Source: Eledone cirrhosa | Taxonomy: Eukaryota | Length of the DNA stretch: 64,000 nucleotides | Direction of reading: 5' to 3' | NCBI GenBank assembly: GCA_964016885.1 | Contig: OZ024745.1 | Coordinates: 82,274,001-82,338,000, forward strand | Made by a program: the position numbers and the translations under genes | Part shown: in pieces, positions 1-44,175 of the stretch | How positions within the stretch are numbered: the first letter of the stretch is position 1 | How the letters are laid out: each line of letters opens with the position of its first letter | Notes under the pieces: generated by a model | Seen by the model: the letters and a program-made list of their open reading frames with translations, nothing else | Told to the model about the DNA's origin: nothing | Database searches by the model: none

Positions 1-3000
1 TTAGTAATTCACTCACACCAAATTGATAACATATTCCCAATAAACAGATGATTCAATCACACGAAATTGATAACATATTTCCACAAAATTAATAATTCAC
101 TCACACGAAATTGATAACTTATTCCCAGAAAATTAATAATCCACTCACACCAAATTGATAACATATTCCCACAAAATTGATAATTCACTCCCACCAAATT
201 GATAACTTATTCCCATAAAATTAATAATTCACTCACACCAAATTGATAACATATTCCCACAAAATTAATAATCCACTCACACCAAATTGATAACATATTC
301 CCACAAAATTAATAATCCACTCACACCAAATTGATAACATATTCCCACAAAATTAATGATCCACTCACACCAAATTGAAAACATATTCCCACAAAATTAA
401 TAATTCACTCACACCAAATCGATAACATATTCCCACAAAATTGATTATTCACTCTTACCAAATTGATAACACATTCCCATTAAACTGATAATTCACTCAC
501 ACCAAATTGATAACATATTCTCACATAATTGATTATTCACTCTTACCAAATTGATAACACATTCCCATTAAACTGATAATTCACTCGCACCAAATTGATA
601 ACATATTCCAACAAAATTGGTAATTCACTCACACCAAATTGATAACATATTCCCACAAAATTAATAATCGACTCACAGCAAATTGATAACATATTCCAAC
701 AAAATTAATAATCCACTCACACCAAATTGATAACGTATTCCCACAAAATTAATAATCCACTCACATCAAATTGATAGCATATTCCCACAAAATTGATAAT
801 TCACTCACACCAAACTGATAACATATTCCACGAAATTAATAATCCACTCACACCAAATTGATAACATATTCCCACAAGATTGATAATTCACTCACGCCAA
901 ACTGATAACATATTCCCACAAAATAAATAATTCACTCACACCAAATTTATAGCATATTCCCACTAAATTAATAATTCAGTCACACCAAATTGATAACGTA
1001 TTCTCACAAAATTGATAATCCACTCACACCAAATTCATAACATATTCCCATAAAATTAATAATTCACTCACACCAAATTTATAACATATTCCCACAAAAT
1101 TAATAATCCACTCACCCCAAATTGATAACATATTACCACAAAATTAATAATCCTCTCACAACAAATTGATAACGTATTCCCAGAAAATTAATAATCCACT
1201 CACACCAAATTGATAACTTATTCCCACAAAATTGATAATTCACTCACACGAAATGAATAACATATTCCCACAAAATTGATAATTCACTCACACCAAACTG
1301 ATAAAATATTCCCACAAAATTATTAATCGACTCACAGCAAATTTATAACATAACCCCACAAAATTAATAATCCACTCACACCAAATTGATAACGTATTCC
1401 CACAAAATTTATAATCCACTCACACCAAATTGATAACATATTCCCACAAAATTGATAATTCACTCACACCAAATTGATAACATATTCCCAGAAAATTAAT
1501 AATTCACTCACACCAAATTGCTAACATATTCCCACAAAATTGATTATTCACTCACACCAAATTGATAACATATTCCCAGAAAATTAATAATTCACTCACA
1601 CGAAATTGATAACATATTCCCACAAAATTAATAATCCACTCACACCAAATTGATAACGTATTCCCACAAAATTAATAATCCACTCACACCAAATTGATAA
1701 CATATTCCCACAAAATTGATAATTCACTCACACCAAATTGATAACATGTTCCATCAAAATTAGTAATTAACTCACACCAAATTGATAACATATTCCCATT
1801 AAACTCATAATTCAATCACACCCAATTGATAACATATTTCCACAAGATTAATAATTCACTCACACGAAATTGATAACATATTCCCACAAAATTAATAATC
1901 CACTCACACCAAATTGATAACGTATTCCCACAAAATTAATAATCCACTCACACCAAATTGATAACATATTCCCACAAAATTGATAATTCACTAACACCAA
2001 ATTGATAACATGTTCCATCAAAATTAGTAATTAACTCACACCAAATTGATAACATATTCCCATTAAACTCATAATTCAATCACACCCAATTGATAACATA
2101 TTTCCACAAGATTAATAATTCACTCACACGAAATTGATAACATATTCCGACAAAATTAATAATCCACTCACACCAAATTGATAACATATTCCCACAAAAT
2201 ATATAATTCACTCACACCAAATTGATAACATATTCCTACAAAATTAATAATCGACTCACAGCAAATTGATAACATATCCCCACAAAATTAATAATCCACT
2301 CACACCAAATTGATAACGTATTCCCACAAAATTAATAATCCACTCCCACCAAATTGATAACATATTCCCACAAAATTAATAATTCACTCACACCAAATTG
2401 ATAACATATTCCATCAAAATTAGTAATTCACTCACACCAAATTGATAACATATTCCCATTAAACTGATAATTCAATCACATCCAATTGATAACATATTTC
2501 CACAAGATTAATAATTCACTCACACGAAATTGATAACATATTCCGAAAAAATTAATAATCCACCCACACCAAATTGAGAACACATTCCCACAAAACAGAT
2601 AATCCACTCACACCAAATTGATAACATATTCCCACAAAATTAATAATCCACTCACACCAAATTGATAACGTATTCTCACAAAATTGATAATTCGCTCACA
2701 CCAAATTGATAACTTATTCCCATAAAATTAATAATTCACTCTCACCAAATTGATAACATATTCCCACAAAATTAATAATCGACTCACACCAAATTAATAA
2801 AGTATTCCCACAAAATTAATAATCTACTCACACCAAATTGATAACATATTCCCACAAATTTAATAATCCACCCACACCCAATTGATAACATATTCCCACA
2901 AAATTAATAATTCACTCACACCAAATTGATAACATATTCCCACAAAATTAATAATCCACTCACGCCAAATTGATAACACATTCCCATTAAACTGATAATT

Positions 3001-6000
3001 CACTCACACCAAATTGATAACATATTCCCACAAAATTGATTATTCACTCTTACCAAATTGATAACACATTCCCATTAAACTGATAATTCACTCGCACCAA
3101 ATTGATAACATATTCCAACAAAATTGCTAATTCACTCACACCAAATTGATAGCATATTCCCACAAAATTGATAATTCACTCACACCAAACTGATAACATA
3201 TTCCACGAAATTAATAATCCACTCACACCAAATTGATAACATATTCCACGAAATTAATAATCCACTCACACCAAATTGATAACATATTCCCACAAGATTG
3301 ATAATTCACTCACGCCAAATTGATAACATATTCCCACAAAATTGATAATTCACTCACACCAAATTGATAACATATTCCCACAAAATTAATAATCGACTCA
3401 CACCAAATTAATAAAGTATTCCCACAAAATTAATAATCCACTCACATCAAATTGATAACATATTACCACAAAATTAATAATCCTCTCACACCAAATTGAT
3501 AACGTCTTCCCAGAATATTAATAATCCACTCACACCAAATTGATAACTTATTCCCACAAGATTGATAATTCACTCACACGAAATTGATAACATATTTCCA
3601 AAAAATTGATAATTCACTCGCATCAAATTGATAACATATTCCCACAAAATTAATGATCCACTCACACCAAATTGAAAACATATTCCCACAAAATTAATAA
3701 TTCACTCACACCAAATTGATAACATATTCCCACAAAATTGATTATTCACTCTTACCAAATTGATAACACATTCCCATTAAACTGATAATTCACTCACACC
3801 AAATTGATAACATATTCCCACAAAATTGATTATTCACTCTTACCAAATTGATAACACATTCCCATTAAACTGATAATTCACTCGCACCAAATTGATAACA
3901 TATTCCAACAAAATTGGTAATTCACTCACACCAAATTGATAACATATTCCCACAAGATTGATAATTCACTCACGCCAAATTGATAACATATTCCCACAAA
4001 ATAAATAATTCACTCACACCAAATTTATAGCATATTCCCACTAAATTAATAACCCACTCACACCAAATTGATAACTTATTCCCACAAAATTGATAATTCA
4101 CTCACACGAAATGAATAACATATTCCCACAAAATTGATAATTCACTCACACCAAACTGATAAAATATTCCCACAAAATTATTAATCGACTCACAGCAAAT
4201 TTATAACATATCCCCACAAAATTAATAATCCACTCACACCAAATTGATAACGTATTCCCACAAAATTAATAATCCACTCACACCAAATTGATAACATATT
4301 CCCACAAAACTGATAATTCACTCACACCAAATTTGTAACATATTCCCAGAAAATTAATAATTCACTCACACCAAATTGCTAACATATTCCCACAAAATTG
4401 ATTATTCACTCATACCAAATTGATAACATATTCCCACAAAATTAATAATCGACTCACAGCAAATTGATAACATATCCCCACAAAATTAATAATCCACTCA
4501 CACCAAATTGATAACGTATTCCCACAAAATTAATAATCCACTCCCACCAAATTGATAACATATTCCCACAAAATTGATAATTCACTCACACCAAATTGCT
4601 AACATATTCCCACAAAATTGATTATTCACTCACACCAAATTGATAACATATTCCCATTAAACTGATAATTCAATCACACCCAATTGATAACATATTTCCA
4701 CAAGATTAATAATTCACTCACACGAAATTGATAACATATTCCGAAAAAATTAATAATCCACTCACACCAAATTGAGAACACATTCCCACAAAATTGATAA
4801 TCCACTCACACCAAATTGATAACATATTCCCACAAAATTAATAATCCACTCACACCAAATTGATAACGTATTCTCACAAAATTGATAATTCGCTCACACC
4901 AAATTGATAACATATCCCCACAAAATTAATAATCCACTCACACCAAATTAATAACGTATTCCCACAAAATTAATAATCTACTCACACCAAATTGATAACA
5001 TATTCCCACAAATTTAATAATCCACCCACACCCAATTGATAACATATTCCCACAAAATTAATAATTCACTCACACCAAATTGATAACATATTCCCACAAA
5101 ATTAATAATCCACTCACATCAAATTGATAACATATTACCACAAAATTAATAATCCTCTCACACCAAATTGATAACGTATTCCCAGAATATTAATAATCCA
5201 CTCACACCAAATTGATAACTTATTCCCACAAGATTGATAATTCACTCACACGAAATTGATAACATATTTCCACAAAATTGATAATTCACTCGCACCAAAT
5301 TGATAACATATTCCCACAAAATTAATGATCCACTCACACCAAATTGAAAACATATTCCCACAAAATAGATTATTCACTCTTACCAAATTGATAACACATT
5401 CCCATTAAACTGATAATTCACTCGCACCAAATTGATTAACATATTCCCACAAAATTGATAATTTACTCACACCCAATTGATAACATATTCCCAGAAAATT
5501 AATAATTCACTCACACGAAATTGATAACATATTCACACAAAATTAAATTGATAACATATTCCCACAAAATTAATAATTCACTCACACCAAATTGATAACA
5601 TATTCCCACAAAATTGATTATTCACTCACACCAAATTGATAACATATTCCCAGAAAATTAATAATTCACTCACACGAAGTTGATAACATATTCCCACAAA
5701 ATTAATAATCCACTCACACCAAATTGATAACATATTCCCACAAAATTTATAATTCATTCACACCAAATTGATAACATATTCCCTCAAAATTAGTAATTCA
5801 CTCACACCAAATTGATAACATATTCCCATTAAACTGCTAATTCAATCACACCCAATTGATAACATATATCCACAAAATTAATAATTCACTCACACGAAAT
5901 TGATAACATATTCCCACAAAGTTAATAATCCACTCACATCAAATTGATAACATATTCCCACAAAATTAATAATCCTCTCACACCAAATTGATAACGTATT

Positions 6001-9000
6001 CCCACAAAATAAATAATCCACTTACAACAAATTGATAACTTATTCCCACAAAATTGATAATTCACTCACACGAAATTGATAACATATTCCCACGAAATTG
6101 ATAATTCACTCACACCAAATTGATAACATATTCCCACAAAATTAATTAGCCCCTCACACCAAATTGATAACATATTCCCACAAAATTAATTATCCCCTCA
6201 CACCAAATTGATAACATATTCCCACAAAATTGATAATTCACTCACACCCAATTGATAAAATATTCCCAGAAAATTAATAATTCACTCACACGAAATTGAT
6301 AACATATTCACACAAAATTAAATTGATAACATATTCCCAGAAAATTAATAATTCACTCACACCAAATTGATAACATATTCCCAGAAAATTAATAATTCAC
6401 TCACACGAAGTTGATAACATATTCCCACAAAATTAATAATCCACTCACACCAAATTGATAACATATTCCCACAAAATTGATAATTCATTCACACCAAATT
6501 GATAACATATTCCCTCAAAATTAGTAATTCACTCACACCAAATTGATAACATATTCCCATTAAACTGCTAATTCAATCACACCCAATTGATAACATATTT
6601 CCACAAAATTAATAATTCACTCACACGAAATTGATAATATATTCCCACAAAATTAATAATCTACTCACACCAAATTGATAACATATTCTCACAAAATTAA
6701 TAATCCACTCACACACAATTGATTACGTATTTCCAGAGAATTAATAATCCACTCACACCAAATTCATAACATATTCCCATAAAATTGATAATTCACTTGC
6801 ACCAAATTGATAACATATTCCCACAAAATTGATAATGCTCTCACACTAAATTGATAACATATTCCCACGAAATTGATAATTCACTGACACCATATTGATA
6901 ACATATTCCCACAAAATTTATAATTCACTCACATCAAATTGATAATTTATTTCCACAAAATTAATAATCCACGCACACCAAATATATAACATATTCCAAC
7001 AAAATTGGTAATTCACTCACACCAAATTGAGAACACATTCCCACAAAACTGATAATCCACTCACACCAAATTGATAACATATTCCCACAAAATTAATAAT
7101 CCACTCACACCAAATTGATAACGTATTCTCACAAAATTGATAATTCACTCACACCAAATTTATAACTTATTCCAATAAAATTAATAATTCTCTCACACCA
7201 AATTGATAACATATTCCCACAAAATTAATAATCCACTCACATCAAATTGATAACATATTCCCACAAAATTAATAATCCTCTCACACCAAATTGATAACGT
7301 ATTCCCACAAAACAAATAATCCACTTACAACAAATTGATAACTTATTCCCACAAAATTGATAATTCACTCACACGAAATTGATAACATATTCCCACGAAA
7401 TTGATAATTCACTCACACCAAATTGATAACATATTCCCACAAAATTAATTAGCCCCTGACACCAAATTGATAACATATTCCCACAAAATTAATTATCCCC
7501 TCACACCAAATTGATAACATATTCCCACAAAATTGATAATTCACTCACACCCAATTGATAACATATTCCCAGAAAATTAATAATTCACTCACACGAAATT
7601 GATAACATATTCCCAGAAAATTAATAATCTACTCACAACAAATTGATAACATATTCCCACAAAATTAATAATCCACTTTCACCCAATTGATATCGTATTC
7701 CCACAAAATAAATAATCCACTCACACCATATTGATAACGTATTCCCACAAAATTAATAATCCACTCACATCAATTTGATAACATATTCCCACTAAATTGA
7801 TAATTCACTCACACCAAATTGATAACATATTCCCACAAAATTAATAATTCACTCACACCAAATTTATAGCATATTCCCACTAAATTAATCATTCACTCAC
7901 ACCAAATTGATAACGTATTCTCACAAAATTGATAATTCACTCACACCAAATTGATAACTTATTCCCATAAAATTAATAATCGACTCACAGCAAATTGATA
8001 ACATTATTACCACAAAATTAATAATCCTCTCACACCAAATTGATAACGTATTCCCAGAAAATTAATAATCCACTCACACCAAATTGATAACTTATTACCA
8101 CAAAATTGAAAATTCACTCACCCGAAATTAATAACATATTCCCACAAAATTGATAATTCACTCACACCAAACTGATAACATATTCCAACAAAATTAATAA
8201 TCAACTCACAGCAAATTGATAACATATTCCCACAAAATTAATAATCCACTCACACCAAATTGATAACGTATTCCAACAAAATTGATAATTCACTCACACC
8301 AAATTGATAACATATTCCCACAAAATTAATAATTCACTCACACCAAATTAATAACATATTCCCACAAAATTGATAATTCACTCACACCAAACTGATAACA
8401 TATTCCCACAAAATTAATAATCAACTCACAGCAAATTGATAACATATTCCCACAAAATTAATAATCCTCTCACACCAAATTGATAACGTATTCCCACAAA
8501 ATTGATAATTCACTCACACCCAATTGATAACATATTCCCAGAAAATTAATAATTCACTCACACGAAATTGATAACATATTCCCATAAAATTGATAATTCA
8601 CTCACACCAAACAGATAAAATATTCCCACAAAATTAATTATCTACTCACAACAAATTGATAACATATTGCCACAAAATTAATAATCCACTCTTACCCAAT
8701 TGATATCGTATTCCCAGAAAATTAATAATCCACTCACACCAAATTGATAACATATTCCCACAAAATTGATAATTCACTCACATCAAATTGATAACATATT
8801 CCCACAGAATTGATAATTCACTCACACCAAATTGATAACATATTCCCACAAAATTAATAATCCACTCACACCAAATTGATAACATATTCCAACAAAATTG
8901 ATAATTAACTCACACCAAATTGATAACGTATTCTCACTAAATTGATAATTCACTCACACCACATTAATAATATATTCCCATAAAATTGATAATTCACTCA

Positions 9001-10888
9001 CACCAAATTGATAACATATTCCCACAAAATTGATAATTCACTCACACCAAATTGATAACATATTCCCACAAAATTAATAATTCACTCACACCAAATTGAT
9101 AACATATTCCCACAAAATTGATAATTCACTCACACCAAATTGAGAACATATTCCCACAAAACTGATAATTCACTCACACCAAATTGATAACATATTCCCA
9201 CAGAATTGATAATTCACTCACACCAAATTGATAACATATTCCCACAAAATTAATAATCGACTCACACCAAATTGATAACATATTCCCACAAAATTAATAA
9301 TCCACTCACACCATATTGATAACGTATTCCAACAAAATTAATAATCCACTCACATCAATTTGATAACATATTCCCACAAAATTGATAATTCACTCACACC
9401 TAATTGATAACATATTCCACGAAATTAATAATCCACTCACACCAAATTGATAACATATTCCCACAAGATTGATAATTCACTCACACCAAATTGATAACAT
9501 ATTCCCACAAAATTAATAATTCACTCACACCAAATTCATAGCATATTCCCCCTAAATTAATAATTCACTCACACCAAATTGATAACGTATTCTCACAAAA
9601 TTGATAATTCACTCACACCTAATTGATAACTTATTCCCATAAAATTAATAATCGACTCACAGCAAATTGATAACATTATTACCACAAAATTAATAATCCT
9701 CTCACACCAAATTGATAACGTATTCCCAGAAAATTAATAATCCACTCACACCAAATTGATAACTTATTACCACAAAATTGATAATTCACTCACCCGAAAT
9801 TAATAACATATTCCCACAAAATTGATAATTAACTCACACCAAACTGATAACATATTCCCACAAAATTAATAATCAACTCACAGCAAATTGATAACATATT
9901 CCCACAAAATTAATAATCCACTCACACCAAATTGATAACGTATTCCCACAAAATTAATAATCCACTCACACCAAATTGATAACATATTCCAACAAAATTG
10001 ATAATTCACTCACACCAAATTGATAACATATTCCCACAAAATTAATAATTCACTCACACCAAATTAATAACATATTCCCACAAAATTGATTATTCACTCA
10101 CACCAAATTGATAACATATTCCCACAAAATTAGTAATTCACTCACACCAAATTGATAAAATATTCCCATTAAACTGATAATTCAATCACACGCAATTGAT
10201 AACATATTCCCACAAAATAAATAATTCACTCACACGAAATTGATAACTTATTCCCACAAAATTAATAATCCACTCACATCAAATTGATAACATATTCCCA
10301 CAAAATTAATAATCTACTCACACCAAATTGATAACATATTCCCACAAAATAAATAATTCACTCACACCAAATTGATAACGTATTCTCACAAAATTGATAA
10401 TTCACTCACACCACATTAATAATATATTCCCATAAAATTGATAATTCACTCACACCAAATTGATAACATATTCCCACAAAATTGATAATTCACTCACACC
10501 AAATTGATAACATATTCCCACAAAATTAATAATTCACTCACACCAAATTGATAACATATTCCCACAAAATTGATAATTCACTCACACCAAATTGAGAACA
10601 TATTCCCACAAAACTGATAATTCACTCACACCAAATTGATAACATATTCCCACAAAATTAATAATTCATTCATACCAAATTTATAATAAATTCTCATAAA
10701 ATTGATAATTCTCTCACACTAAATTGATAACATATTCCCACAAAATTGATAATTCACTCACACCAAATTGATAACATATTCCCACAAAATTAATAATTCA
10801 CTCACACCAAATTTATAACATATTCCCACAAAATTAATAATTCACTGACACCAAATTGATAACATATTCCCACAAAATTGATAATACA
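1..10888. repeat. 44-bp tandem satellite array (dimer of two related 22-mers), runs off the left edge
   Basis: Consensus aaattgataacatattcccaca+aaattaataattcactcacacc. Period 44 (taattcactc at 181 and 225). About 245 units. Confidence 0.97.
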
Positions 10889-11229
10889 CTGTGTGATTTC
10901 TCCGGGCTATTAGAAATACTAGGTAAATCTTCTGTGGCTGTTGATCGCGGATAAAATAGGTATCATTTATTAATCTATTGTTTCTTCATAGGTACATTTT
11001 AAACTTATATCCTCGTTTAATTGATTTTTTGTGTGGTTAATTATGCTGATTGGGAAAGGAAATTGTGTATATATTTTATCAAATGATTATATTGACTTAC
11101 TTTCTTATATATTGCTCTGATTGTTGATTATTTGATTAATTATTTCGTCATTGAGCCATACATGTGAATGGTTGCCAAAAACACATATATATATCTATAG
11201 CTCTGTCTAGTTTATGTATATATAAATCT

Positions 11230-11232
11230 ATA

Positions 11233-11317
<85 letters not shown>
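11230..11317. repeat. (TA)n microsatellite
   Basis: Direct reading. Confidence 0.95.
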
Positions 11318-11325
<8 letters not shown>

Positions 11326-11492
11326 GAATTAGTACCAACATATGCGTACAGATGTACACTAATGCTAGCAAATACATAAGTTATGTCATAGTACCTAGGT
11401 GGTTCAATGCAGGAGGATGGAGAACAATTATATGAAAGACGTAAAATAAGAAAATTAAAAAAAAAATTAAAAATTAACTTACTAAAATTTTC

Positions 11493-11574
11493 ACTCCAAC
11501 TAATTAGTTTCTGTAATGGGATAAAGATAGTTACATAATGTAACGATCGAGAATTCATTACGTCATCAGGGAGT
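11493..11574 (-). ncRNA. Type I hammerhead ribozyme
   Basis: Reverse complement: actcc-CTGATGA-c[gtaatg...cattac]a-GAAA-ctaattag-TT-ggagt. Helix I is 5 bp and helix III is palindromic. Confidence 0.8.
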
Positions 11575-12058
11575 CTATTCTAAGCTAAGTCTCCAGGCAA
11601 TGCGCGGACACTAGGGACTCATGTAAAAATAATAATAATTCGGTGGATGGAACAGCTAGCGGGGACTGAATTCCATGCACTGAAAAAGTTCGCTGGCTCT
11701 TGTCAAATGGCAGATTCTAAAGAATCAATCACGTGACACTGAGGCTAGTCGGAAGGAGTGACTTGGTAAGATGACAAAAGCCTACTACCACACCAATGAA
11801 TTAGTAGTGGATTTGGCAGGTTTGCTCAACAAATAAATAATTTGGAGATAAATATATAGAATTAGTATATCTACCAACATATGCGTACAGATGTACACTA
11901 ATGCTAGCAAATACATAAGTTATGTCATAGTACCTAGGTGGTTCAATGCAGGAGGATGCAGAACAATTATATGAAAGACTTAAAATAAGAAAATTAAAAA
12001 AAAATTAAAAATTAACTTACTTACTAAAATTTTCACTCCAACTAATTAGTTTCTGTAA

Positions 12059-12138
12059 TTCCCTGATGACGTAATGAATTCTCGATCGTTAGATTATGTA
12101 ACTATCTTTATCCCATTACAGAAACTAATTAGTTGGAG
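12059..12138 (+). ncRNA. Type I hammerhead ribozyme (inverted copy)
   Basis: ttcc-CTGATGA-cgtaatg...cattaca-GAAA-ctaattag-TT-ggag. Confidence 0.7.
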
Positions 12139-12288
12139 TGAAAATTTTAGTAAGTAAGTTAATTTTTAATTTTTTTTAATTTTCTTATTTTACGTCTTTC
12201 ATATATATATATATAAAGAAAAAGAGATGAAATCGAAAATGCAACTGGAGTCTTATTTTTTTAAAAAATATATATATTTATTTGGTTA

Positions 12289-12324
12289 CTTTACCGGTTT
12301 CGCTGTTCTTCTGCTTTTCAAAAG
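12289..12324 (-). ncRNA. Minimal hammerhead-like motif, U3-A8 core
   Basis: Reverse complement: ctt-TTGAAAA-gc agaagaaca gc-GAAA-ccgg-TA-aag. All helices are very short. Confidence 0.45.
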
Positions 12325-12545
12325 GTGAGTTGAGATGGAGGGTCTGTGGTTTTTCTCACATCTGGTTTGTCTCTGAATGTTACTTGTTTTATATGGAAAA
12401 AGTGGCTCGAAATGCCAGGTTTTTCGAGAAGTAATTTGATTAGTTTGTCAATAATTATAATAAATTTCGCGCCAGTTCGCGTTACAATAGTTCTTCAAAT
12501 AAGAGGGGGGGGGGGTTGTCACAGGTTGTTTTTTCATATATGAGT

Positions 12546-12851
12546 GTTTGAATTTCTTTTTACTTGAAAAAAGGAGGCTCACGAAGGCTCTTTTTTGGTT
12601 GGTTATAAATGAAATTATGACTGTCACGTGAACAAATTTTCATTAAATTTTTGTGCCCTTATTTGGAAATCCATTCTGTAGCCTTTTTAGAGAATTTTTT
12701 GATAAGTGAAAGATAATGGTCAAGAGAAAGGGGTGGGAGAATTCTTCTGGTTCAGTGAATATGGTTAATTCGCTGGGGTGTCAGAATTCAGATTTTCTAT
12801 TGAATAAAGAAAGTAAAGATATGTGTGGTTATTTGTGTGCTTGTGTGTGTG

Positions 12852-12884
<33 letters not shown>

Positions 12885-13028
12885 TTGAATTTCTTTACTT
12901 TAAAAAAAGGTGGCTCACGAAGGCTTTTTTTTAATAAACGTTATTTGATTGGTTATAAATGAAATTTGGCTGTCACGTGAACAAGTTTTCATTACATTTT
13001 TGCGCCCTTATTTGGAAAACTATTCTAT
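12546..13028. repeat. About 135-bp direct repeat (12546-12680 and 12882-13028), probably a decayed PLE-type element
   Basis: gtttgaatttcttt..acttnaaaaaagg.ggctcacgaaggct...ccttatttggaaa occurs twice. Confidence 0.55.
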
Positions 13029-13812
13029 CAAGGCCAACTACTCCACCTGTTTGCTGAGATCATTGATGTTATATTCTTATAGAAATCTAGTAAATAATCA
13101 GGAGCTGATTATGCAGGGCGGTTGTTGTTCAGGCAGAAATTAAAAATTAGAATTGGAGCTCTGAAATAGCAATATATATATGGATGTATATATAATGTAT
13201 TTTGCAATACACTTTATGCTTAATTAAAAGCATTTTGAAGACCGTAAGCTATTGTTTTAAAGTAGTGGCAAATTCACTCGCTTTGATCTCAGCAAACAGG
13301 GGAGATAAGCCGACAAGACTTGTTTCCTTTTGGTTGAAGCTTATCAAGGCCAACTATCCCACCTGTTTGCTGAGATCAATGATGTTATATTCTTATAGAA
13401 ATCTAGTAAATAATCAGGAGCTGATTATGCAGAGCGGTTGTTGGTTAGGCAGAAATTAAAAATTAGAATTGGAGCTCTGAAATAGCAAAATATATATGGA
13501 TGTATATATAATGTATTCTGCAATACACTTTATGCTTAATTAAAAGCATTTTGAAGACCGTAAGCTATTGTTTTAAAGTAGTGACAAATTCACTCACTTT
13601 GATGTCACTACTTTAAAACAATAGCTTACGGTCTTCAAAATGCTTTTAATTAAGCATAAAGTGTATTGCAAAATACATTATATATACATCCATATATATA
13701 TATTGCTATTTCAGAGCTCCAATTATAATTTTTAATTTCTGCCTGACCAACAACCGCTCTGCATAATCAGCTCCTGATTATTTACTAGATTTCTATAAGA
13801 ATATAACATCAA

Positions 13813-13907
13813 TGATCTCAGCAAACAGGTGGGGTAGTTGGCCTTGATAAGCTTCAACCAAAGCGAAACAAGTCTTGTCGGCTTATCTCCCCTGTTTGCT
13901 GAGATCA
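13813..13907 (+). ncRNA. Type I hammerhead ribozyme, U3-A8 core, extended helix I
   Basis: tgatctcagcaaacagg..ggcc-TTGATAA-gctt caacca aagc-GAAA-caagtcttg-TC-ggct..cctgtttgctgagatca. Confidence 0.85.
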
Positions 13908-14130
13908 AAGTGAGTGAATTTGCCACTACTTTAAAACAATAGCTTACGGTCTTCAAAATGCTTTTAATTAAACGTAAAGTGTATTGCAAAATACATTATA
14001 TATACATCCATATATATATATTGCTATTTCAGAGCTCCAATTCTAATTTTTAATTTCTGCCTGACCAACAACCGCTCTGCATAATCAACTCCTGATTATT
14101 TACTAGATTTCTATAAGAATATAACATCAA

Positions 14131-14225
14131 TGATCTCAGCAAACAGGTGGGGTAGTTGGCCTTGATAAGCTTCAACCAAAGCGAAACAAGTCTTGTCGGC
14201 TTATCTCCCCTGTTTGCTGAGATCA
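14131..14225 (+). ncRNA. Type I hammerhead ribozyme, U3-A8 core (second tandem copy)
   Basis: Same motif 318 nt downstream of 13813. Confidence 0.85.
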
Positions 14226-14356
14226 AAGTGGGTGAATTTGTCACTACTATAAAACAATAGCTTACGGTCTTCAAAATGCTTTTAATTAAGCATAAAGTGT
14301 ATTGCAAAATACATTATATATACATCCATATATATATTGCTATTTCAGAGCTCCAA

Positions 14357-14361
<5 letters not shown>

Positions 14362-14433
<72 letters not shown>
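14362..14433. repeat. (TA)n microsatellite
   Basis: Direct reading. Confidence 0.95.
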
Positions 14434-14437
<4 letters not shown>

Positions 14438-15190: not shown

Positions 15191-15242
15191 TACACATATT
15201 TTTTTAAAGAGAGAGAGCGGGAGTAGATAAAGAGAGACGTTC

Positions 15243-15327
<85 letters not shown>

Positions 15328-15651
15328 TGAGAGAGAGACAGAGATCGAACGTCTCTCTCTATCTACCACCGTTCTCTCTCTTTAATATGTGTGTGTCTGT
15401 AAATATATATTTGTAAAGTATATATGGTTAAAATATGTTATGATGAACCTAAAAAATGTATCTATACAGGCGTATACTTCGGAAGTAAGTGACAGTACCG
15501 CCTATGGGAATTGAGCCACGTGTCTGTTGTACACCGAGCAATCACAGAAATATGAAGGCTGGACTGTTTCTCAAATTCTAATTTAGTGTATTTAGATATG
15601 TACATGTATAAACCGCATCTGTTTACCTGCAGTCATATCCCATGACTTTCG

Positions 15652-28789: not shown

Positions 28790-31700
28790 CCCCGTGACCA
28801 AGAAATACCGGGATGGCGGCCGGCGGGGAATAGCCGTGTCTCTAGGGGAGAACGACCCCTCTAGTCTTGGTTGACACTCGTTCTAGAAGTGGTAACACGA
28901 AATGATTACCCCTTGGCCGATAAGGATAAAACGCGACAAAATAAAGTAAATGTCTAATGATAAAATCTCATACCGGATCGGCCGTCACCCGGGTAAAAAA
29001 GGGCCGCGTCCCTCAGAGAGGAACCAGACTGGGGTCGAAAAATCAGCTAATGGTTCAAACATTCCCATCACTTCGGAGCTGGAGACCTCCCATAACCAGA
29101 ATACTCCTACTGTTGGCCCTCCATGCTCACCACCAAGAAATCCAAAGAAAAAGAGAGAAAAATGGTCAAGGGAAGATAATAAAGAAGTCCTTGAGGCTTT
29201 CTACACTGCCATGTACTACCCATCAAATACATCTAATACAGAACAGACATATATCAACTGGAAAAAGAAACATCCCGAAAACAGAGGCTATATTGACAGT
29301 AACAAACTAGCCAATATACGAAGAAATATTGTAAGAAAAAAGTTACTAACTGATATAGAAATTGATCAGATCAAGCTATTAGCACAAAGTCAGCGAAGGG
29401 AAAATGAAACATGTGTCAGTGAAAACGAGGTAAACTGTAACACTTCGAACCCCAGGGTTGGGGCGGAATCACTGGCAACAGAACAAATTAAAGAAAGGAT
29501 CGAAAAAGTGGAGGGTGTGCATGCTCAGGATGAAACTCCAAATGAAAATAATGAGATCGTAAATGATAAAGAAATGAATGAGAATGAACTTGCCAACTTG
29601 AGGGATGAAATTATGATCGAATGGATGAAAATGAAAGAATCTGACATGGGGCAACGAGACACTCTCCCTAAGATCCAGAACTCCAAACAGAACCAAAAGA
29701 TAATACACAAGACTAACATAATTCTCAAAACATTATCATCACGAACAAACTAAACATTACTGATTTAAATCATCTCTATTATGCATCGGCTAAAGTCACC
29801 ACTCACTTATGTGGAGTGAAGATGAAAAAACAAAGGAATTCCCACAAGAAATCTACTTGGCAAGAGAACATCAATCGCCAAATAAACCTTCTCCGATCTG
29901 ACATAGAAATTTTAACAAACTATAAAGTAGGTGAACATGTTAAACAAACTAAACTTAGGAAATTGAAAAGAAAGTACAGTATAAAATCAACATGTGACAT
30001 AGACATGCTGATAGAAATAATCAAGCTAAAAGTGTCGGCCAAAGCTGCTCGTATAAGGCGCTTTGAAAAACGATCTAGATTCTATAAGGACAATAATATG
30101 TTCAAAAACAACCAAAGAAACTTCTACAGAAAAATTGGTAAGTCAACAATAACTGCTAAATCAATACCACCCAAGGAGGAAGTGCAAGAATTCTGGGAAA
30201 AGATCTGGGCCGAAGAAAAAGTTCATAACATACATGCCCCATGGATAGACAGACAAATGAAAGATACAGCTCACCTTGAGAAACAAATATGGGAAAATAT
30301 AACAGTTGAACAGTTGCGCCTGGCTCTAAGAAAAACCAGCAAATGGAAATCCCCAGGAAAAGACAAAATACAAAACTTTTGGATAAATGCCTTCACAGAG
30401 TCTCATGAGCTGTTAGCCCAACTTTACAATGAAATATTTACGGAGCCAGAAAAGATACCATCATGGCTAGTTAACGGCATTACATTCCTGCTTCCGAATA
30501 ATGATGAGACAAACAATCCCAAAAATTACAGACCGATAACTTGCTTGACCACAATGTATAAAATTTTAACATCAGTCCTAACTGAATACACATATGACCA
30601 CCTGATAACAAATGACCTATTTCCCATTGAGCAGAAAGGGTGTAAACGAGGCTCATATGGCTGTAAGGATCAGCTTCTGGTTAACAAAATGATACTGGAA
30701 GATTGTCATAATAGACACAAAAATCTATCGATTGCTTGGATAGATTATAAAAAAGCATTCGATAGTTTGCCACACAGTTGGATTGAAAAATGTTTAGAGA
30801 TTTTCAAAATATCCCCCGTTGTGAGGAGGTTTTTGTCATTCAGTATGAAGACATGGAAAACGACACTCCTTTTGAATAGTGAAACAAAATCACTGGAAGC
30901 TGGAGAAGTTAATATTAATTGTGGAATTTTTCAGGGTGACTCTTTATCACCGCTTTTATTCTGCATCGCACTTATACCATTAAGTAAAATGCTCAATGAA
31001 ACAAAACATGGATATAAAGTCTATGACAAAACCATTAATCACTTGTTCTACATGGATGACCTGAAACTATTTGCAAAAAATGATGAACAATTGCAAGGTC
31101 TATTATCCACTGTAGAGCAGTTCAGTGATGACATTAAAATGGAGTTTGGACTAGATAAATGCGCCAAAGCAACGTTCACGAGAGGAAAGCTGCTGAAGAG
31201 TTCAGACATTAATCTTGATCGGGGGAACGTGATAAGAGAGCTTGATCAAGAAAAAACTTACAAATATCTAGGTGTTTGTGAAGGAGACGGAATCAAGCAC
31301 TCGACAATGAGGGAAAGGATAAGGAAGGAATGTTACCGCAGAGTGAGAGCAATCTTAAGAACGGAATTGAATGCAAGGAATAGGATCGATGCCATAAACA
31401 CGCTTGCCATACCAGTAGTAACCTACAGTTACAATGTCATCAACTGGTCAAGCACAGAGATTGGTAGGCTCGATACAAAAATTCGAAAATTCTTAACCAT
31501 GCACAGAATGCATCACCCTAAGGCAGATATAGATAGAATATATCTCCCTAGGAAAGAAGGAGGACGTGGGTTAATCCAGTTAGACATTGCGTTGAAAACT
31601 GCAACAATTGGATTATCTACATATCTAAGGGAATCACATGATTGGATGATCAAACTCGTTTTGAAACACGAAAGCATCAAAAGATCATATTCCATTACAA

Positions 31701-32740
31701 AAGATACACAAAGATACAGTAATGGACTACAAATTTCAGAAGTCCCATTTACTGCTGAAATGGAAAACACAGAAAAAGCAAAGCAGGTAAAAGTAACTGC
31801 AAAGAAAGAACTGCTACAGAAACTGGCTAAGAAAAGGCAAGAAAAGCCTCTGTATGGAAAATACCCAGAACGAGCTAACAATCCTGATGTTGACAAAACT
31901 TTAACCCATCAGTGGTTGGCATCCTCTGGACTGAAATCGGAGACTGAAGGACTGATTATATCAGCACAAGATCAGTTTCTGCCAACAAAAAATTACCAAG
32001 CCAACATAATAAAAAATGGATGCAGCCCATTATGCCGTGTATGCAAAAAACAACCAGAGACCATTGACCATATAATTTCAATGTGCAGTCCTATAGCTCC
32101 AACCGAATACCTAAACAGGCATGACAGAGCGGCACAATACATACATTGGATAATGTGTAAGCATTTTGACCTGCCCCATCAAAAGAATTGGTGGGAGCAT
32201 CAACCACCTACCATACTTGAAAAAGATCACATCTCAATCTTGTGGAACTTTAGCATCCAAACAGACCGAAAAATAGATGCAAATAGACCTGATATAATAT
32301 TGAAGGACTTTAAAAAGGGTATGGCTGCTAATTGATATGTCCGTTCCAATAGACAAGAATGTATCTATAAAAACATTTGAAAAATTGAGCAAGTTTAAGG
32401 ACCTAGAGATAGAAATTGGAAAAATGTGGAAATTGAGAACTAAAACAATACCAGTGGTTGTAGGCGCTCTGGGAATGATACCTAAGGGGTCTAATGATTA
32501 CTTATCGCAAATCCCAGGAAACCCGCGTATAGGAGAAATACAAAAGATAGTACTAATGGGAACTGCCCATATACTAAGGAAGATTCTGTCAATATAAGTA
32601 CATCACAAGTCTAAACACTATAGATGCATGTGTGAGTATGTATGTTCTTTCTTGAACATGGCGGACCTTATTGTCTCTTGAGATCACTGGTTGTGACTTG
32701 GTGATAAGTCGTATGAACATAAAGCAAGATAAATGCAACT

Positions 32741-32793: not shown

Positions 32794-35513
32794 TGGAAAG
32801 CTTGAGTCCCTACTGACATTGGAAAGCTTGAGTCCCTACTGAATGGGACACTAAAAAACATAGACACTAAAAATAGACTGGAAATAAAGTACAAAACTAG
32901 GAGGAAAAAGCTAAATATTATCATAGAGGAACTGAAGCAACGCATTGTAGCAAAGAGTGCAAAAATCAGGCGATACGAGAACAGAGTCAGCCAGTATAGA
33001 CAGAACCGCATGTTCGACAACAACCAGAAGATGCTGTTTGGACAGCTTGAGGGGAAAGAAAGAGGCAACGACTTGATCCCTGAGGCGGAACAAACTAAAA
33101 CATTCTGGAGAGAAATATGGGAGCAGGATGTTAAACATAATGACCAGGCAGTGTGGATTGAGACAGTACAGAAGGAGATCAGTGAACAAGCACGCCAACA
33201 AACTGATTTGAGTATCACAGTTGAAACTCTTAAGGGGTAGGCCAAAAAACTAACCAACTGGAAACCAACTGGAAATCACCTGGCCCAGATGGTGTGCAGG
33301 GGTATTGGATTAAAAACATAACATCCCTCCACCCGAAACTGACAATCATGTTCAATGACTGCTTGATGTCAGGTGAGGTACCAGAGTGGTTGACAAAAGG
33401 TACCACAGTTCTGATAATGAAAGACCGAATCAAGGGTAATGATGTTACCAACTATAGACCTATCACATGTCTGTCCGTAATGTGGAAACTGTTGACAAGC
33501 ATTATGTCTGAGGAAATATACCATCACCTCCACACAAACAACTTGTTACCGGACGAACAGAAAGGATGCCGAAAGAAGTCACGTGGTACAAAGGACCAGT
33601 TACTTATTGATAAGATGGTAATGAGGAATTGCAAGAGGAGACACACTGGTCTTGCCATGGGATGGAAAGACTACAAAAAGGCATTTGACATGGTGCCTCA
33701 TTCTTGGATCACCAAAAGCCTGGAGATCTTCAAGGTGGCAGATAACATCAGGCAGTTGTTGGGCAAAAGTATGAAGTCCTGGGAAACAGAGTTAACATCA
33801 ACTGGAGAATCCTTGGGAAGCGTGAAGATCAAGAGACGTATCTTCCAGGGAGATAGTCTGTCCCCTCTGTTGTTTGTCCTTGCCCTGATGCCCCTGACCA
33901 GTGTACTGCGAAAAGTGAGAGCAGGATACAGGTTGGGAAAGGGAGGGCTTACCATCAATCACCTCCTCTTCATGGACGATCTTAAGCTCTTCGGGAAGAG
34001 TGAGAAGGAGTTGGATGTGCTTGTTGAGACTGTCCGTATTTTCAGCAATGATATATGTATGCAATTTGGTATTAGTAAGTGTGGAGTAATTGTGATGAGG
34101 AGGGGTAAGTTGAGCAGAAGTAACGGAATCCAGATACCAACAGGTGAGATGATAAAAGAAATTGACTCTGAGGAAGGATACAAGTATTTGGGCGTTCTGG
34201 AGGCTGATGACATCAAGAACAAAAAAATGAAGGAATTGATAAGAACTGGATACCTTCGGAGAGTAAGGAGCGTATTAAAGTCACATCTGAACAGTAGGAA
34301 TGCCATAAGTGCAGTAAATTCCCGAGCTGTGTCTATTATTAGGTACAGTGCGGGAATTCTGAGATGGAATGTTGCTGAACAAAAAGAAATGGATAGGAAG
34401 ACTAGGAAGCTATTCACTATCTACAATATGTTACACAAGAGGAGTGATGTCGATAGACTCTACTTAAGGAGATCTGAGGGTGGAAGAGGTCTTATCAGCA
34501 TAGAGGACTATGTTCAGATGGAGAAAAACAACCTACACAAATACGTGACTGATAGTAAGGAGCCAATGCTCAGAGCTGTACTGAAGGAGGAGACAATAGG
34601 CCAGGGGATGTCCAAGGAGGAAATAACATCAAGGAGAAAGAGCAGCCTTCAGGAAAAATCCCTTCATAGTACCTTCTTTGAGAAAACTGAATTTAGAGAT
34701 CCACAGACATGGAACTGGTTGAAAAGAGGAGACCTTAAAAAGGCTACAGAAGGAATGTTAATGGCTGCGCAGGAGCAGGCCCTCAAAACGAAGTGGTTGA
34801 AACACCACATTTACAAGGAGGAGGCTAGCCCACTGTGCAGGATCTGTGGAGAGAGAGAGAGAGGAGGCTGTGGCTCACATTGTATCCGAGTGTAAACACC
34901 TAGCCCAGACTCACTATAAGGGCTGGAGACATGATGTGATGGGCAGGGTGATCCACTGGCACCTATGCAAAGTAAACAATTTACCACATTCTGAGAAGTG
35001 GTATGAGCATAAGCCAGAGGCGGTGATAGAAAACGATCAGGTGGAGGTGCTGTGGGATTTTAGGATACAGACGGACAAGAAACTGGAACACAATAGACCT
35101 GACCTGGTGGTTTTGGACAAAGAAAAAAGATAGTGCCTGATTGTGGATGTGGCCTGCCCATTAGACACGAGAGTGCAAGAGAAGGAGAGGGAGAAAATTA
35201 ACCGATACCAGGACTTAAAGTGGGAGGTAAAAAGGATTTGGAACTGCCATGAAGTCAAAGTGATCCCGATTGTCATAGGCGCACTAGGGACTATCTCAAA
35301 AAGTTTCCAGGGATGGTTAAAGAAAATTGGCCCCTTCACGCTTTTTGGAACGCTTCAAAAGGCATGCTTGCTGGGAACAGCAAGAACCCTCCGATACGTC
35401 CTGAATATCTGAGGCTGCAGGTAGTGACTTGATATTCATCTCAACAAACTTTCCAGTTAACTAACATCAATGACTGAGACTCAAAGAGTAATAACAATAA
35501 TAATAATAATAAT
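32794..35513 (+). mobile_element. Second R4/Dong-clade element (different family), 5'-truncated, with stops and frameshifts and an (AAT)n tail
   Basis: YRPITCL, IFQGDSLSPLLF, HLLFMDDLKLF, CRICGE, RHD, NRPDLVV, PIVIGALG. Stops at about 33238 and 35131. Frameshift in (GA)n at about 34860. Confidence 0.92.
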
Positions 35514-39267: not shown

Positions 39268-39710
39268 GGAGAGAGAGAGAGGGGGAGAGGGAGAGATGGG
39301 GAAATAGAGAGGATGTAAAAAGAGATATATACACATTAATCAATTTGGATAAAACGAAAATTAAACACGATGATTGTAAACAAAGGAGCTCCGTAGAGCA
39401 TATTTGGACGTTTAAATTAGCTAAATGGTTTGAAAATCTTCTTCTCATGTCTAACGTCCAAATCTATTATTTTTCTAGCTTAATGTTTTCTCTTTCTATT
39501 TTCTTTCTTGCAATGTTCTCTCTTTCTATTTTCTTTCTTGCAATGTTCTCTCTTTCTCTCTTTATTTTCTCTTGACAAAGTTGTTTTGCACACTGTTCAT
39601 CATTTCGTTTCTAGTTAGAGACACCCTGATTTGTAGTCCATCGTCCCGATAAATTCCACCGCGAAGTTGAGGAATTTTCCGATTCAAAGAGTTCAAAATA
39701 AAGATACCAA

Positions 39711-41060
39711 TTCGCGGTGGAATTTATCGGGACGATGGACTTTTTACTATCTTAAATTGCAACATAGTTAACCTTAATATTATTAAGAACAATATACGTG
39801 ATCTCTTTAACCAACATAACTTAAAAATTGAATTTGATAACAACATCAAACTAGCTAACTTCTTGGATATATCCCTTAATCTTGACACTGGCCTATATTA
39901 CCCTTACCATAAAAACAATGAGAATCTAAATTATGTTAATTTTAAATCTAACCACCCCACTAACATTAAAAATGCTATAGTTAGTAATTTTGGAAAAAGA
40001 ATATCAAACCTATCATCTAATAAAAATATCTTTGATGCTAACGCCAATTACTATAATAACGCGCTTTCTAAAGCCGGTTATCCTGATAAAATCAAATACA
40101 GTAAAGAAACCAATCCTAGAAGATCTTACAGTAAAATAATTAATTATGATCATTCCAATAACATTAATAAAAGACCTAGATACAAAAATATAATCTGGTA
40201 TAATGCTCCTTTCTCCATTTCTATTAATAATAATATTCCTAAATTATTCTTTAGTGCCTTAAATAAATGCTTCCCTCCCTCACATATCTATAGTAAAATA
40301 TTTAACAAACATACAATAACAATTTCCTATTCCACCTCCTCCAACATCTCCAACATTATCGCTAAACACAACAATAAAATATTAAATACTAAATCACTTC
40401 CTTCCAACACTGAATGTCATAATAATAGCAGTAGTACTCCCGACGTCATTGTTAACTCTAGGCTAGTTTCTGAAAACCCAAATACGACGTCAAACGTAAC
40501 TTCGTCAAATGTTCTTAATACCAATCTAAATCAGAAAACTATTATTCCTATCGTAAATAACTTCTACAATCCAATTCCTCATATAGATAACACTAGGTCA
40601 TTTGTTAATAACTCTGTTAATTTCTCTAATCGCAATTGTAATTGCCCTGTTAAAAATAAATGTCCTCTCAACAACCATTGTCTTGAAAAAAACTTAATCT
40701 ATGAATGTAAAGTTATAACTGACACCAATTCCTTTACCTATTTTGGCTCCACTTCCACCTCCTTTAAAGCCCGTTTTTATAATCACAATTCTTCTTTTAA
40801 ATACCAACTTAAAAGAACCAACACAGCACTCTCAGAACTCATATGGTCCCTGAAAGACAAAAATATTAACTATAACATCTCTTGGAGGAAAGTTGTTCTG
40901 CCTCTCCCTACTTGAATGCCTAGCCAGAACGTGTAATATTTGTTTATGTGAGAAATTTACCATTATATCTAATTTAGATTCTATAATAAATAGACGCACT
41001 GACTTTATTTCTCTCTGCTTGCATAAATTCCACAGAACATTCCATAAAGTATACAGCTAA
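39711..41060 (+). pseudogene. PLE RT thumb plus GIY-YIG endonuclease (truncated, late frameshift)
   Basis: GGIYRDDGL..ANFLDISLNL..KSNHP..IIWYNAPFS..CNC..KCPLNNHCL..LIYECKV..YFGST..FKARFYNH, then CNICLCEKF in another frame. Confidence 0.88.
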
Positions 41061-42719: not shown

Positions 42720-43570
42720 CAGATGATTGTTTATATATTGTCAAAGTTCTTTCGTCACACATTCTGTGACGTCTTCAGTGACTGGGTATTCTTTTCTTTG
42801 TTTTCGTGCCTCTCCTTTGTTCTGTCCTACGCCATCTTGTTTCTGTGTGTGTGTTGTGTGCTCAGTCTGCGCATGTGCCACATCCGGGTGTCTGTGTGTG
42901 TTTATATTCGTTTATTTATTTGTTTATTTACATGTTACTGGCTGGTTGTTTGTTCTATGTGCGTGTGTGTTTTCATTCTGTCCTTAATTGTAAGTTGTGA
43001 TGTTGCTATTCCACTCATGTTTTCTATTTAATTTTGGTTGGAGTTGATTTATGTGATTTGTCTAAACATTGTGTCTTTTCTGTGTGTAGATTCTATTTTT
43101 ATTTCTATGTTCTCTAATTTACCGTAGAGTACAGATGATTCTTTACTATCTTGAAGGTCTCGCCAGTGTTCATTTATCCGTTCCCCTATACTACGAGCTG
43201 TCTCACCTATGTACACTATATTTTTATCTCTACATTGTCCTTCAGTACATCTTATGCTATATACTACATTTCTAGTTTTACAGTTAATATGGGGGCTTAA
43301 TTTACAGATTATACATTTCTTATCTATACAGGGAGGTCTTTGAAAAGGGTATGTCTTGCTAATAAGTGTTTTTATGGAGGTACCTGGTCTTTCAACTATC
43401 TTAATATTGAGTTTATGTTTATCTAGGGCCCTTCTAAATTTGTAAGGTAATTCACCTCTAGGTGTTTTATCGATGAACATTACACTCTGGTATTTATTGC
43501 TATCATACCATGAGTTTATTCTATTAGCCTTATTCCTAGTTCTTTCTATTCTAAAGAAGTAGGAATAAGG
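42720..43570 (-). mobile_element. Penelope-like element 3' fragment (tentatively Nematis-like): GIY-YIG, 3' UTR and HHR
   Basis: WYDSNKYQSVMFIDKTP..IVERPGTSIK..C..C..C..CKTRNVVYSIRC..YIGETARSIGERINEH, then PKLNRKHEW. Confidence 0.82.
42740..42782 (-). ncRNA. Minimal type I hammerhead ribozyme
   Basis: Reverse complement: gtca-CTGAAGA-c-gtcaca gaatg tgtgac-GAAA-gaac-TT-tgac. Confidence 0.75.
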
Positions 43571-43769
43571 AGTTATTAACAATATATTTAGAAACACACA
43601 GATACATGCGGACACACACATATACATGAATGCATCCACACCCAACCGTGAGTTAATGGTGCCAACCTCACCGATGTTGCTCAATGAATGACTGGGACAG
43701 ACCAATCCGGTTGAATTAGACTGAACCAGTATCAGAGTTAAAGTGTTTCTAAATATATTGTTAATAACT

Positions 43770-44175
43770 CCCTCTGGTTGAGTAATCTTTGAAGTGTGGT
43801 GACTGCTGGAAAGCTGCCATTACTCATACTTCTCGCCCCCTTCACCACCTCTTCTACGGCTTCGATATAAATACCCCCTCCGCCTCCGTGGTATTTTCTT
43901 CGGGGTTATAAGAGGCTTAGCTCTGTTTCTCGACCGTTATATCGCGTGACTATCTCCCCCTCCGCCTTTTGGGATTCTTTCTCACGTCGTGTAGACGCGT
44001 TCTTGAAGCTAGTAAAATGAGGTATCCTCTTGATAAGTCGGCAGACCTCGCAGAGACTCTATATCTTTATGATGTATTTTTGTTTATGCCACGAAACTAC
44101 GTAGTCGAGGAATCTAGGAGCAGTTTAGGTATGATACATTTTATTACTAATTATATCTAAATGTTTCTTCTCTCT
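43770..44175 (+). mobile_element. Solo pseudo-LTR-like non-coding element with HHR, ending at (TA)n
   Basis: TATAAATA at about 43867, HHR near the 3' end, and a 28-bp inverted repeat upstream (43570-43597 and 43743-43770). Confidence 0.55.
44025..44111 (+). ncRNA. Type I hammerhead ribozyme, U3-A8 core
   Basis: tcctc-TTGATAA-gt c ggca...tgcc ac-GAAA-ctacgtag-TC-gagga. Confidence 0.82.

Follow-up and report, generated by a model that had tools for sequence, protein, structure and literature searches.

Hammerhead ribozyme motifs occur in tandem within a paired array in the genome of Eledone cirrhosa. Here we report the organization of this locus, which lies in a 64,000-nt stretch of DNA (the window, to which all coordinates below refer), and of the dispersed repeat family to which it belongs. 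The array consists of two head-to-head arms of retrozyme units between tracts of TA repeats, and a fragment of a Penelope-like element (PLE) adjoins the left arm. The features are as follows.

12201..12215, no strand: left (TA)n target tract, adjoining the short end of the PLE fragment
12212..13026, − strand: fragment of the autonomous PLE family A (PLE-A), comprising its 3' 815 nt (3' UTR/pseudo-LTR) and terminating at the PLE-A short end
12288..12325, − strand: minimal hammerhead-like motif of PLE-A, U3-A8, differing from the PLE-A copy L111 by substitutions in both helix I and helix II
13025..13026, no strand: PLE/retrozyme junction with 1-nt microhomology and without a TA tract, unique in the genome
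13026..13607, − strand: inverted retrozyme arm of about 1.8 units (unit positions 21–318, then 1–288), period 316
13284..13378, − strand: hammerhead whose helix II carries two substitutions; cleavage predicted after C13312
13603..13607, no strand: head-to-head arm junction, 5-nt overlap
13603..14363, + strand: direct retrozyme arm of about 2.4 units (42–318, 1–318, 1–168), period 318, stopping at the family long end
13813..13907, + strand: type I hammerhead 1, with U3-A8 core at 13844–13850, 4-bp helix II and palindromic helix III, predicted cut after C13879
13813–13829 / 13891–13907, + strand: distal stem of hammerhead 1, a perfect 17 bp continuing helix I
13880..14197, + strand: 318-nt cut-to-cut unit, the predicted excised monomer
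14131..14225, + strand: type I hammerhead 2, identical to hammerhead 1, predicted cut after C14197
14338..14363, + strand: tail of about 26 nt separating the family short end (unit position ~142) from the long end (~168)
14362..14434, no strand: right (AT)n target tract, 36.5 copies

The original prediction had described two identical hammerheads on the + strand with GUC sites 318 nt apart, a helix I extended by a 17-bp distal stem, and a mirror array on the opposite strand whose hammerhead has a damaged helix II. All of this is real and was correctly described. The + strand cores (TTGATAA at 13844 and 14162) are accompanied by GAAA and by GUC sites that end at C13879 and C14197, 318 nt apart, and a comparison of the two + strand periods showed 6 differences over 318 positions. 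The minus arm aligns with the plus arm over about 565 columns, and both substitutions in its hammerhead sit in the 3' strand of helix II. A second minus-strand hammerhead is incomplete, being interrupted within its core at 13026, where the mirror array ends in the PLE fusion, unlike a normal family end. The retrozyme region contains no open reading frame of at least 150 aa. A 100-nt hammerhead motif folds with a z score of −8.8 (equally stable shuffles, 0 of 200). Against Rfam, no match in the 64-kb window reached the gathering score; each + strand motif gave a sub-threshold match to Hammerhead_HH9 (24.6 bits against a cut-off of 52, E 0.0033), and miRNA-like sub-threshold matches at 13540–13650 were rejected as the central palindrome.

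The original prediction had also called the element recent and retrozyme-like, and had asked for its copy number in the genome. A 23-nt hammerhead core pattern yielded 697 exact matches in the 3.0-Gb genome (control pattern, 0); the first 98 of these occupy 50 loci, which suggests by extrapolation a family of roughly 350 loci. A similarity search gave at least 219 matches (from 40 of 1088 candidates); the best full-unit copies are 95–98% identical to the unit, and most of the full copies listed are 316 nt long, not 318. The family is young, as proposed, and older subfamilies (75–89% identical to the unit) in many cases share the same two ends. Units inside one locus share one haplotype, with a divergence of 1.4% within arms versus 2.5% between loci (L168 left out), and arrays reach 26 units. 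Non-LTR retrozymes are taken here as non-coding tandem units of 150–450 nt with a hammerhead in each and at least two consecutive intact motifs; the locus shows these features, and the family is dispersed and multi-copy. By its sequence, the locus belongs to a non-coding hammerhead tandem repeat of the non-LTR retrozyme type that is present in hundreds of copies, in line with the proposed tandem family of 316–318-nt units. The longest array, with 26 units (L168, C1:293634300-293644299), contains a 6-unit higher-order duplication and is a candidate source locus. Further C3-G8 hammerhead-like families that are unmatched by the unit were also seen (L034, L036, L043, L050, L057 and others), some of them inside inverted repeats.

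A relaxed core pattern recovered 1937 motifs genome-wide, of which 1291 have a U3-A8 and 599 a C3-G8 pair, so that 47 are mixed; a Watson-Crick 3-8 pair is present in 1890 of the 1937. The proposed compensatory U3-A8 core therefore reflects real covariation. As a new variant it has been anticipated, since U3-A8 hammerheads are described in the Schistosoma Cercyon PLE (PMC4209133) and by Perreault et al. (PMC3088659). Pairing at 3-8, together with GAAA and an NUH site, gives the motifs the core of a type I hammerhead. In an alignment of 28 motifs, 93.7% of the cells are paired (36–46% in slid controls), and double changes occur at 13 of 25 pairs, distributed over helices I, II and III, the distal stem and the 3-8 pair; covariation in all three helices is what a type I hammerhead should show, although it represents few independent events because the aligned motifs are related and split across subfamilies. 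Common stem polymorphisms within the young family either leave the bases paired, as G-U, in the + strand RNA or are compensatory. The U3-G8 combination occurs naturally (2 of the first 100 rows), so an A8G mutant, which yields this wobble and had been proposed as an inactive control, may not be a clean null. The fold constrained to the active form lies 6.2 kcal/mol above the minimum at the locus and 2.6–7.9 kcal/mol above it in 8 of 8 motifs, in a model that covers neither tertiary contacts nor proteins, and folding as a monomer, as two motifs or as a circle each gave a predicted minimum other than the active form. The structure of the hammerhead is conserved; its predicted cleavage is weak, or would require a dimer or the help of a protein.

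The integration footprint was determined mainly from 51 consecutive loci on chromosome C1, which correspond to the first 100 core matches. Counts of inverted loci are lower bounds, since matches below 84.5% identity or confined to an internal AT patch were filtered; L071, a near-duplicate of L069, was counted here and left out of the divergence and haplotype comparisons. Head-to-head inversion was found at 34 of the 51 loci, and 31 of these 34 pair one long with one short end. Two fixed sites, at unit position ~142 or 168–179, account for 81 of 85 3' ends, and 75 of 85 lie beside TA repeats. The 5' ends are variable and scattered over the unit, with 3 of 68 at the predicted cut site and no pile-up. 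Among 22 further, non-randomly chosen loci, 14 are inverted (8 long + short, 1 long + long); the only long + long inverted locus sampled, L028, has arms that differ in haplotype. No target-site duplication is readable within the TA repeats. Classic LINE-1 twin priming was considered and rejected, as both arms begin in the same terminal unit and their sequences overlap.

PLEs are described as leaving an inverted 5'-truncated copy, a one-sided tail of 30–40 bp and insertions in (TA)n targets (PMC8557442, PMC3846280). The two strands of AT-rich DNA are each cut and extended by a PLE protein in vitro, and its reverse transcription begins at two internal positions, which delimit the tail, a feature called unique to PLEs; hammerhead cleavage in that system is protein-assisted and not needed for insertion, and unprocessed RNA is used (PMC11167929). 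The Eledone family shows the same combination of adjacent fixed 3' ends with a one-sided tail, head-to-head 5'-truncated inversion and (TA)n targets. With its TA-repeat targets, mirror half and pairing of one long with one short end, the retrozyme is likely copied by a PLE enzyme, and we consider its mobilization by PLE machinery as such to be very probable. The inverted geometry that the original prediction had seen at one locus is hence a family-wide property. The link between retrozymes and PLEs that it drew from this geometry is supported by the footprint; as an idea it is not new, having already been put forward (PMC7229834; PMC8969392; Li et al., bioRxiv 10.64898/2026.07.22.740005). PLE mobilization of animal retrozymes has been proposed in these reports, not demonstrated.

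Candidate partners were sought with a GIY-YIG search of the genome, which gave 10,597 first-look candidates; 150 were scored and 40 loci examined, and young coding PLEs were found among them (20 stretches inspected). PLE-A (L111) encodes 938 aa in a frame that matches RT and GIY-YIG (the RT match just below the curated cut-off); it has a CX4CxxC linker, a U3-A8 motif of its own and two pLTRs that are 97.8% alike. Its core has 7037 matches in the genome, and 17 of 20 loci chosen for opposed core pairs combine a long and a short end. The last 7 nt of the PLE-A long end are identical to those of the retrozyme long end; beyond them the unit and the PLE-A pLTR show no similarity (score 26, shuffle mean 30), so that PLE-A is a candidate partner and any shared recognition signal is putative. 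Among the 40 GIY-YIG loci, no unit was found flanking an RT + GIY-YIG reading frame or resembling a PLE pLTR; the only locus matched by the unit was L092, where an older copy lies downstream. In 140 retrozyme locus records, tblastn found PLE matches in 9. Descent of the retrozyme from a PLE pLTR is likely, with no such pLTR found among those examined. In many short inverted PLE-A copies (L191–L210; loci chosen for closely spaced opposed cores), 5' truncation recurs at one site, some 40 nt upstream of the hammerhead core.

Direct fusions of retrozyme and PLE sequences were found at the window locus and at two others, and involve three different PLE families (A, B and C), each with its own pLTRs that differ from the unit. 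The fusion at 13025/13026 had been overlooked in the original prediction. The PLE-A fragment there is up to 97% identical to other genomic copies and has the orientation of the retrozyme arm, which it joins within a hammerhead core; no second copy of the junction exists in the genome with up to one mismatch allowed. The pairing of a PLE short end with a retrozyme long end follows the long + short rule of the family. At L150 (L150/L241), the short arm of the retrozyme stands head-to-head with a young 5'-truncated PLE-B that ends at the PLE-B long end (2-nt microhomology), and at L160 a short arm stands head-to-head with a young 5'-truncated PLE-C (3-nt microhomology); the end-type motif of PLE-C matched at none of 16 comparison loci, and the PLE-C copy at L160 runs into other sequence. 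Both are among 23 single-arm loci screened for neighbours of the 5' end, nine of which were flagged: PLE coding-region DNA adjoins L137, L150 and L160, and the other six were judged by eye to be simple or other repeats. L137 was read as a nested insertion and not as a fusion: its retrozyme sits within a tandem PLE-B copy, in the 5' part. Deletion between neighbours does happen, as the tail-to-tail fusion at L073 has both ends clipped, and TA tracts (36 in the window) are common, frequently hit targets shared by PLEs and the retrozyme. Nested insertion followed by deletion can explain the fusions at L150, L160 and the window. A private variant common to both window arms marks the left arm as a normal arm minus about 170 nt. 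It is somewhat the better bet that the PLE fragment in the window was inserted into the TA flank by a later event that removed these ~170 nt; a template switch within one event is plausible at rather less than even odds.

The form of the template can be judged from the arms themselves. Insertion ends lie 142–168 nt downstream of the predicted cut site and arms cross that site up to 26 times; together with the lack of a 5' pile-up, this excludes cleaved linear monomers as the template. Both arms share a subfamily haplotype at 25 of 28 scorable loci (chance, 0.17). Variants that are common to both arms and yet not present in all units were index-matched in six of seven cases at non-chimeric loci, with the unit index counted from the 3' ends (matched: L063 twice, L079, L085, L140 and L169; non-matched: L026; L168 was left out of the variant list, and L001 and L028 out of the index comparison). 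Look-ups of five of these six showed that four do not occur at other loci. Between the arms, units of the same index diverge by 1.36%, and units of different index by 1.61%. Such private variants, recurring at the matching unit index in both arms, favour an uncleaved, ordered multimer over a monomer circle; they come from five loci (most loci carry no such information), and either gene conversion or multimeric circles might have produced them as well. A multimeric, uncleaved RNA is the template we consider probable, and index-matched variants allow circle and multimer templates to be tested against each other on genome sequence alone.

The reading that we favour, with reasonable though not strong confidence, is that a non-coding 316–318-nt hammerhead repeat is retrotransposed in trans by PLE proteins, probably from a largely uncleaved multi-unit RNA. 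A PLE RT/GIY-YIG protein would cut both strands of a (TA)n tract, and cDNA would be primed from each DNA end at two internal start sites. Reverse transcription would then continue over one or more units, reading past the ribozyme, and microhomology would join the resulting pair of cDNAs; monomers and circles may form and need not be the transposition template.

The same machinery might instead roll around an excised unit-length circle and so build the tandem arms. This is a published model (PMC7229834, PMC4209133), and the original prediction likewise expected a unit-length, possibly circular RNA. Repeated crossing of the cut site in arrays of up to 26 units, the single haplotype per locus with its lower within-arm divergence, and the conservation of the hammerhead helices and core agree with such a circle, as does the formation of circles by related repeats of mussel, coral and axolotl (PMC7229834). 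A monomer, however, predicts no variants tied to unit position in both arms, its active fold is not the predicted minimum in any of the three folds, PLE insertion in vitro proceeds without a need for cleavage (PMC11167929), and in the Xenopus preprint only 1 of 9 dimers was cleaved (bioRxiv 10.64898/2026.07.22.740005), so that we regard a circular template as rather unlikely. Contigs from four sequencing runs of unrecorded kind numbered 1004, 2, 12 and 2 on one unit, and the 316-back joint present in contigs of two runs fits a circle and tandem DNA alike. That the arrays are multiplied pseudo-LTRs of an unsampled autonomous PLE, moved in cis, has a precedent in Xenopus, where retrozymes match PLE pLTRs (24 of 57 families match known TEs, PLEs making up 21/22; bioRxiv 10.64898/2026.07.22.740005), and a parent could lie outside the 40 GIY-YIG loci examined; the scarcity of PLE matches in the locus records, direct joins to PLEs with different pLTRs, the single old downstream match at L092 and arms that pass from unit into unit without an open reading frame make it improbable. 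A DNA-level repeat (satellite, foldback or MITE-like) with the hammerhead as a relic would account for the higher-order repeats in the long arrays L168, L169 and L163, which indicate DNA-level duplication. This reading is already largely refuted by the end structure, since the copies are dispersed, their 3' ends are fixed and their 5' ends vary, the two ends are asymmetric and the joins show microhomology, and polymorphisms that maintain or restore pairing on the + strand RNA weigh against it further, leaving it a very slim chance. More speculative, and on balance doubtful, is a viroid-like hammerhead RNA parasite without pLTR homology that several unrelated PLE families mobilize: the PLE complex would prime on a different RNA at each end of a single DNA break (retrozyme and PLE mRNA), leaving the chimeras at the window locus, L150 and L160, and a conserved inactive fold would keep the ribozyme off, with uncut multimers as templates.

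Metazoan non-LTR retrozymes (Cervera & de la Pena 2020, PMC7229834; Li et al., bioRxiv 10.64898/2026.07.22.740005) are, like the Eledone family, non-coding repeats arranged in tandem, a few hundred nt long and low in GC content, with a single type I hammerhead in each unit, a helix III that is palindromic and co-occurrence with PLEs (PMC7229834). The Eledone family differs from those described there in its U3-A8 core and long distal stem and, relative to both reports, in the inversion, tail and TA targets described here; its unit is unlike the pLTRs examined, in contrast to many Xenopus families (bioRxiv 10.64898/2026.07.22.740005), and it is known from genome sequence, with the circle a predicted product, whereas other metazoan retrozymes form circles (PMC7229834). 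EN+ PLEs, of the Neptune/Nematis type by the CX4CxxC linker (PMC8557442, PMC3846280, PMC11167929), share the head-to-head inverted 5'-truncated copy, the one-end tail, the (TA)n targets and a hammerhead upstream of two 3' ends; the retrozyme differs by having no open reading frame, a tail of ~26–33 nt (~63 nt in PLE-A) and a hammerhead of canonical size with closed helix I, that of PLEs being minimal. The published U3-A8 hammerheads (PMC4209133, PMC3088659) have the same compensatory 3-8 pair and are described as active in vitro (PMC3088659), whereas here the motif resides in a tandem element, and the genome also contains C3-G8 relatives (75–80% identical). Non-autonomous Chlamys elements such as MRC1 (PMC8557442) are likewise non-coding, PLE-mobilized and inserted in multicopy head-to-tail form; unlike the retrozyme, they tend to share 3'-end similarity with the autonomous partner, and most Chlamys elements, as described there, have no canonical hammerhead. 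Neither a retrozyme with an inverted/tail footprint nor a retrozyme–PLE fusion was found in the literature, of which supplements and subscription papers may hold one. On these comparisons the locus is a variant of the known retrozymes, presumably mobilized by PLEs. Because of the PLE tail signature and the young intact PLE frames, trans-mobilization is directly testable in the existing in vitro assay (PMC11167929), which could use the candidates named here and the predicted start sites.

The window contains several other repeats and coding sequences. Frames at 39671–40915 (+), 43049–43819 (−) and 47549–49387 (−) have RT-like and GIY-YIG-like motifs by eye; they gave no tblastn match with PLE-A/B proteins and possibly represent more distant PLE clades. 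A 44-bp satellite of about 247 copies with strong strand skew occupies positions 1–10890, duplicated 164-nt and inverted 116-nt segments lie to the left of the PLE fragment (11309–12175), and a near-perfect 182-nt palindrome of microsatellites lies to the right of the array (15204–15385). Long RT frames of 872 and 553 aa are located at 29717–32335 (+) and 33234–34895 (+), near (AAT)n/(TAA)n tracts, and resemble R4/Dong-type non-LTR elements.
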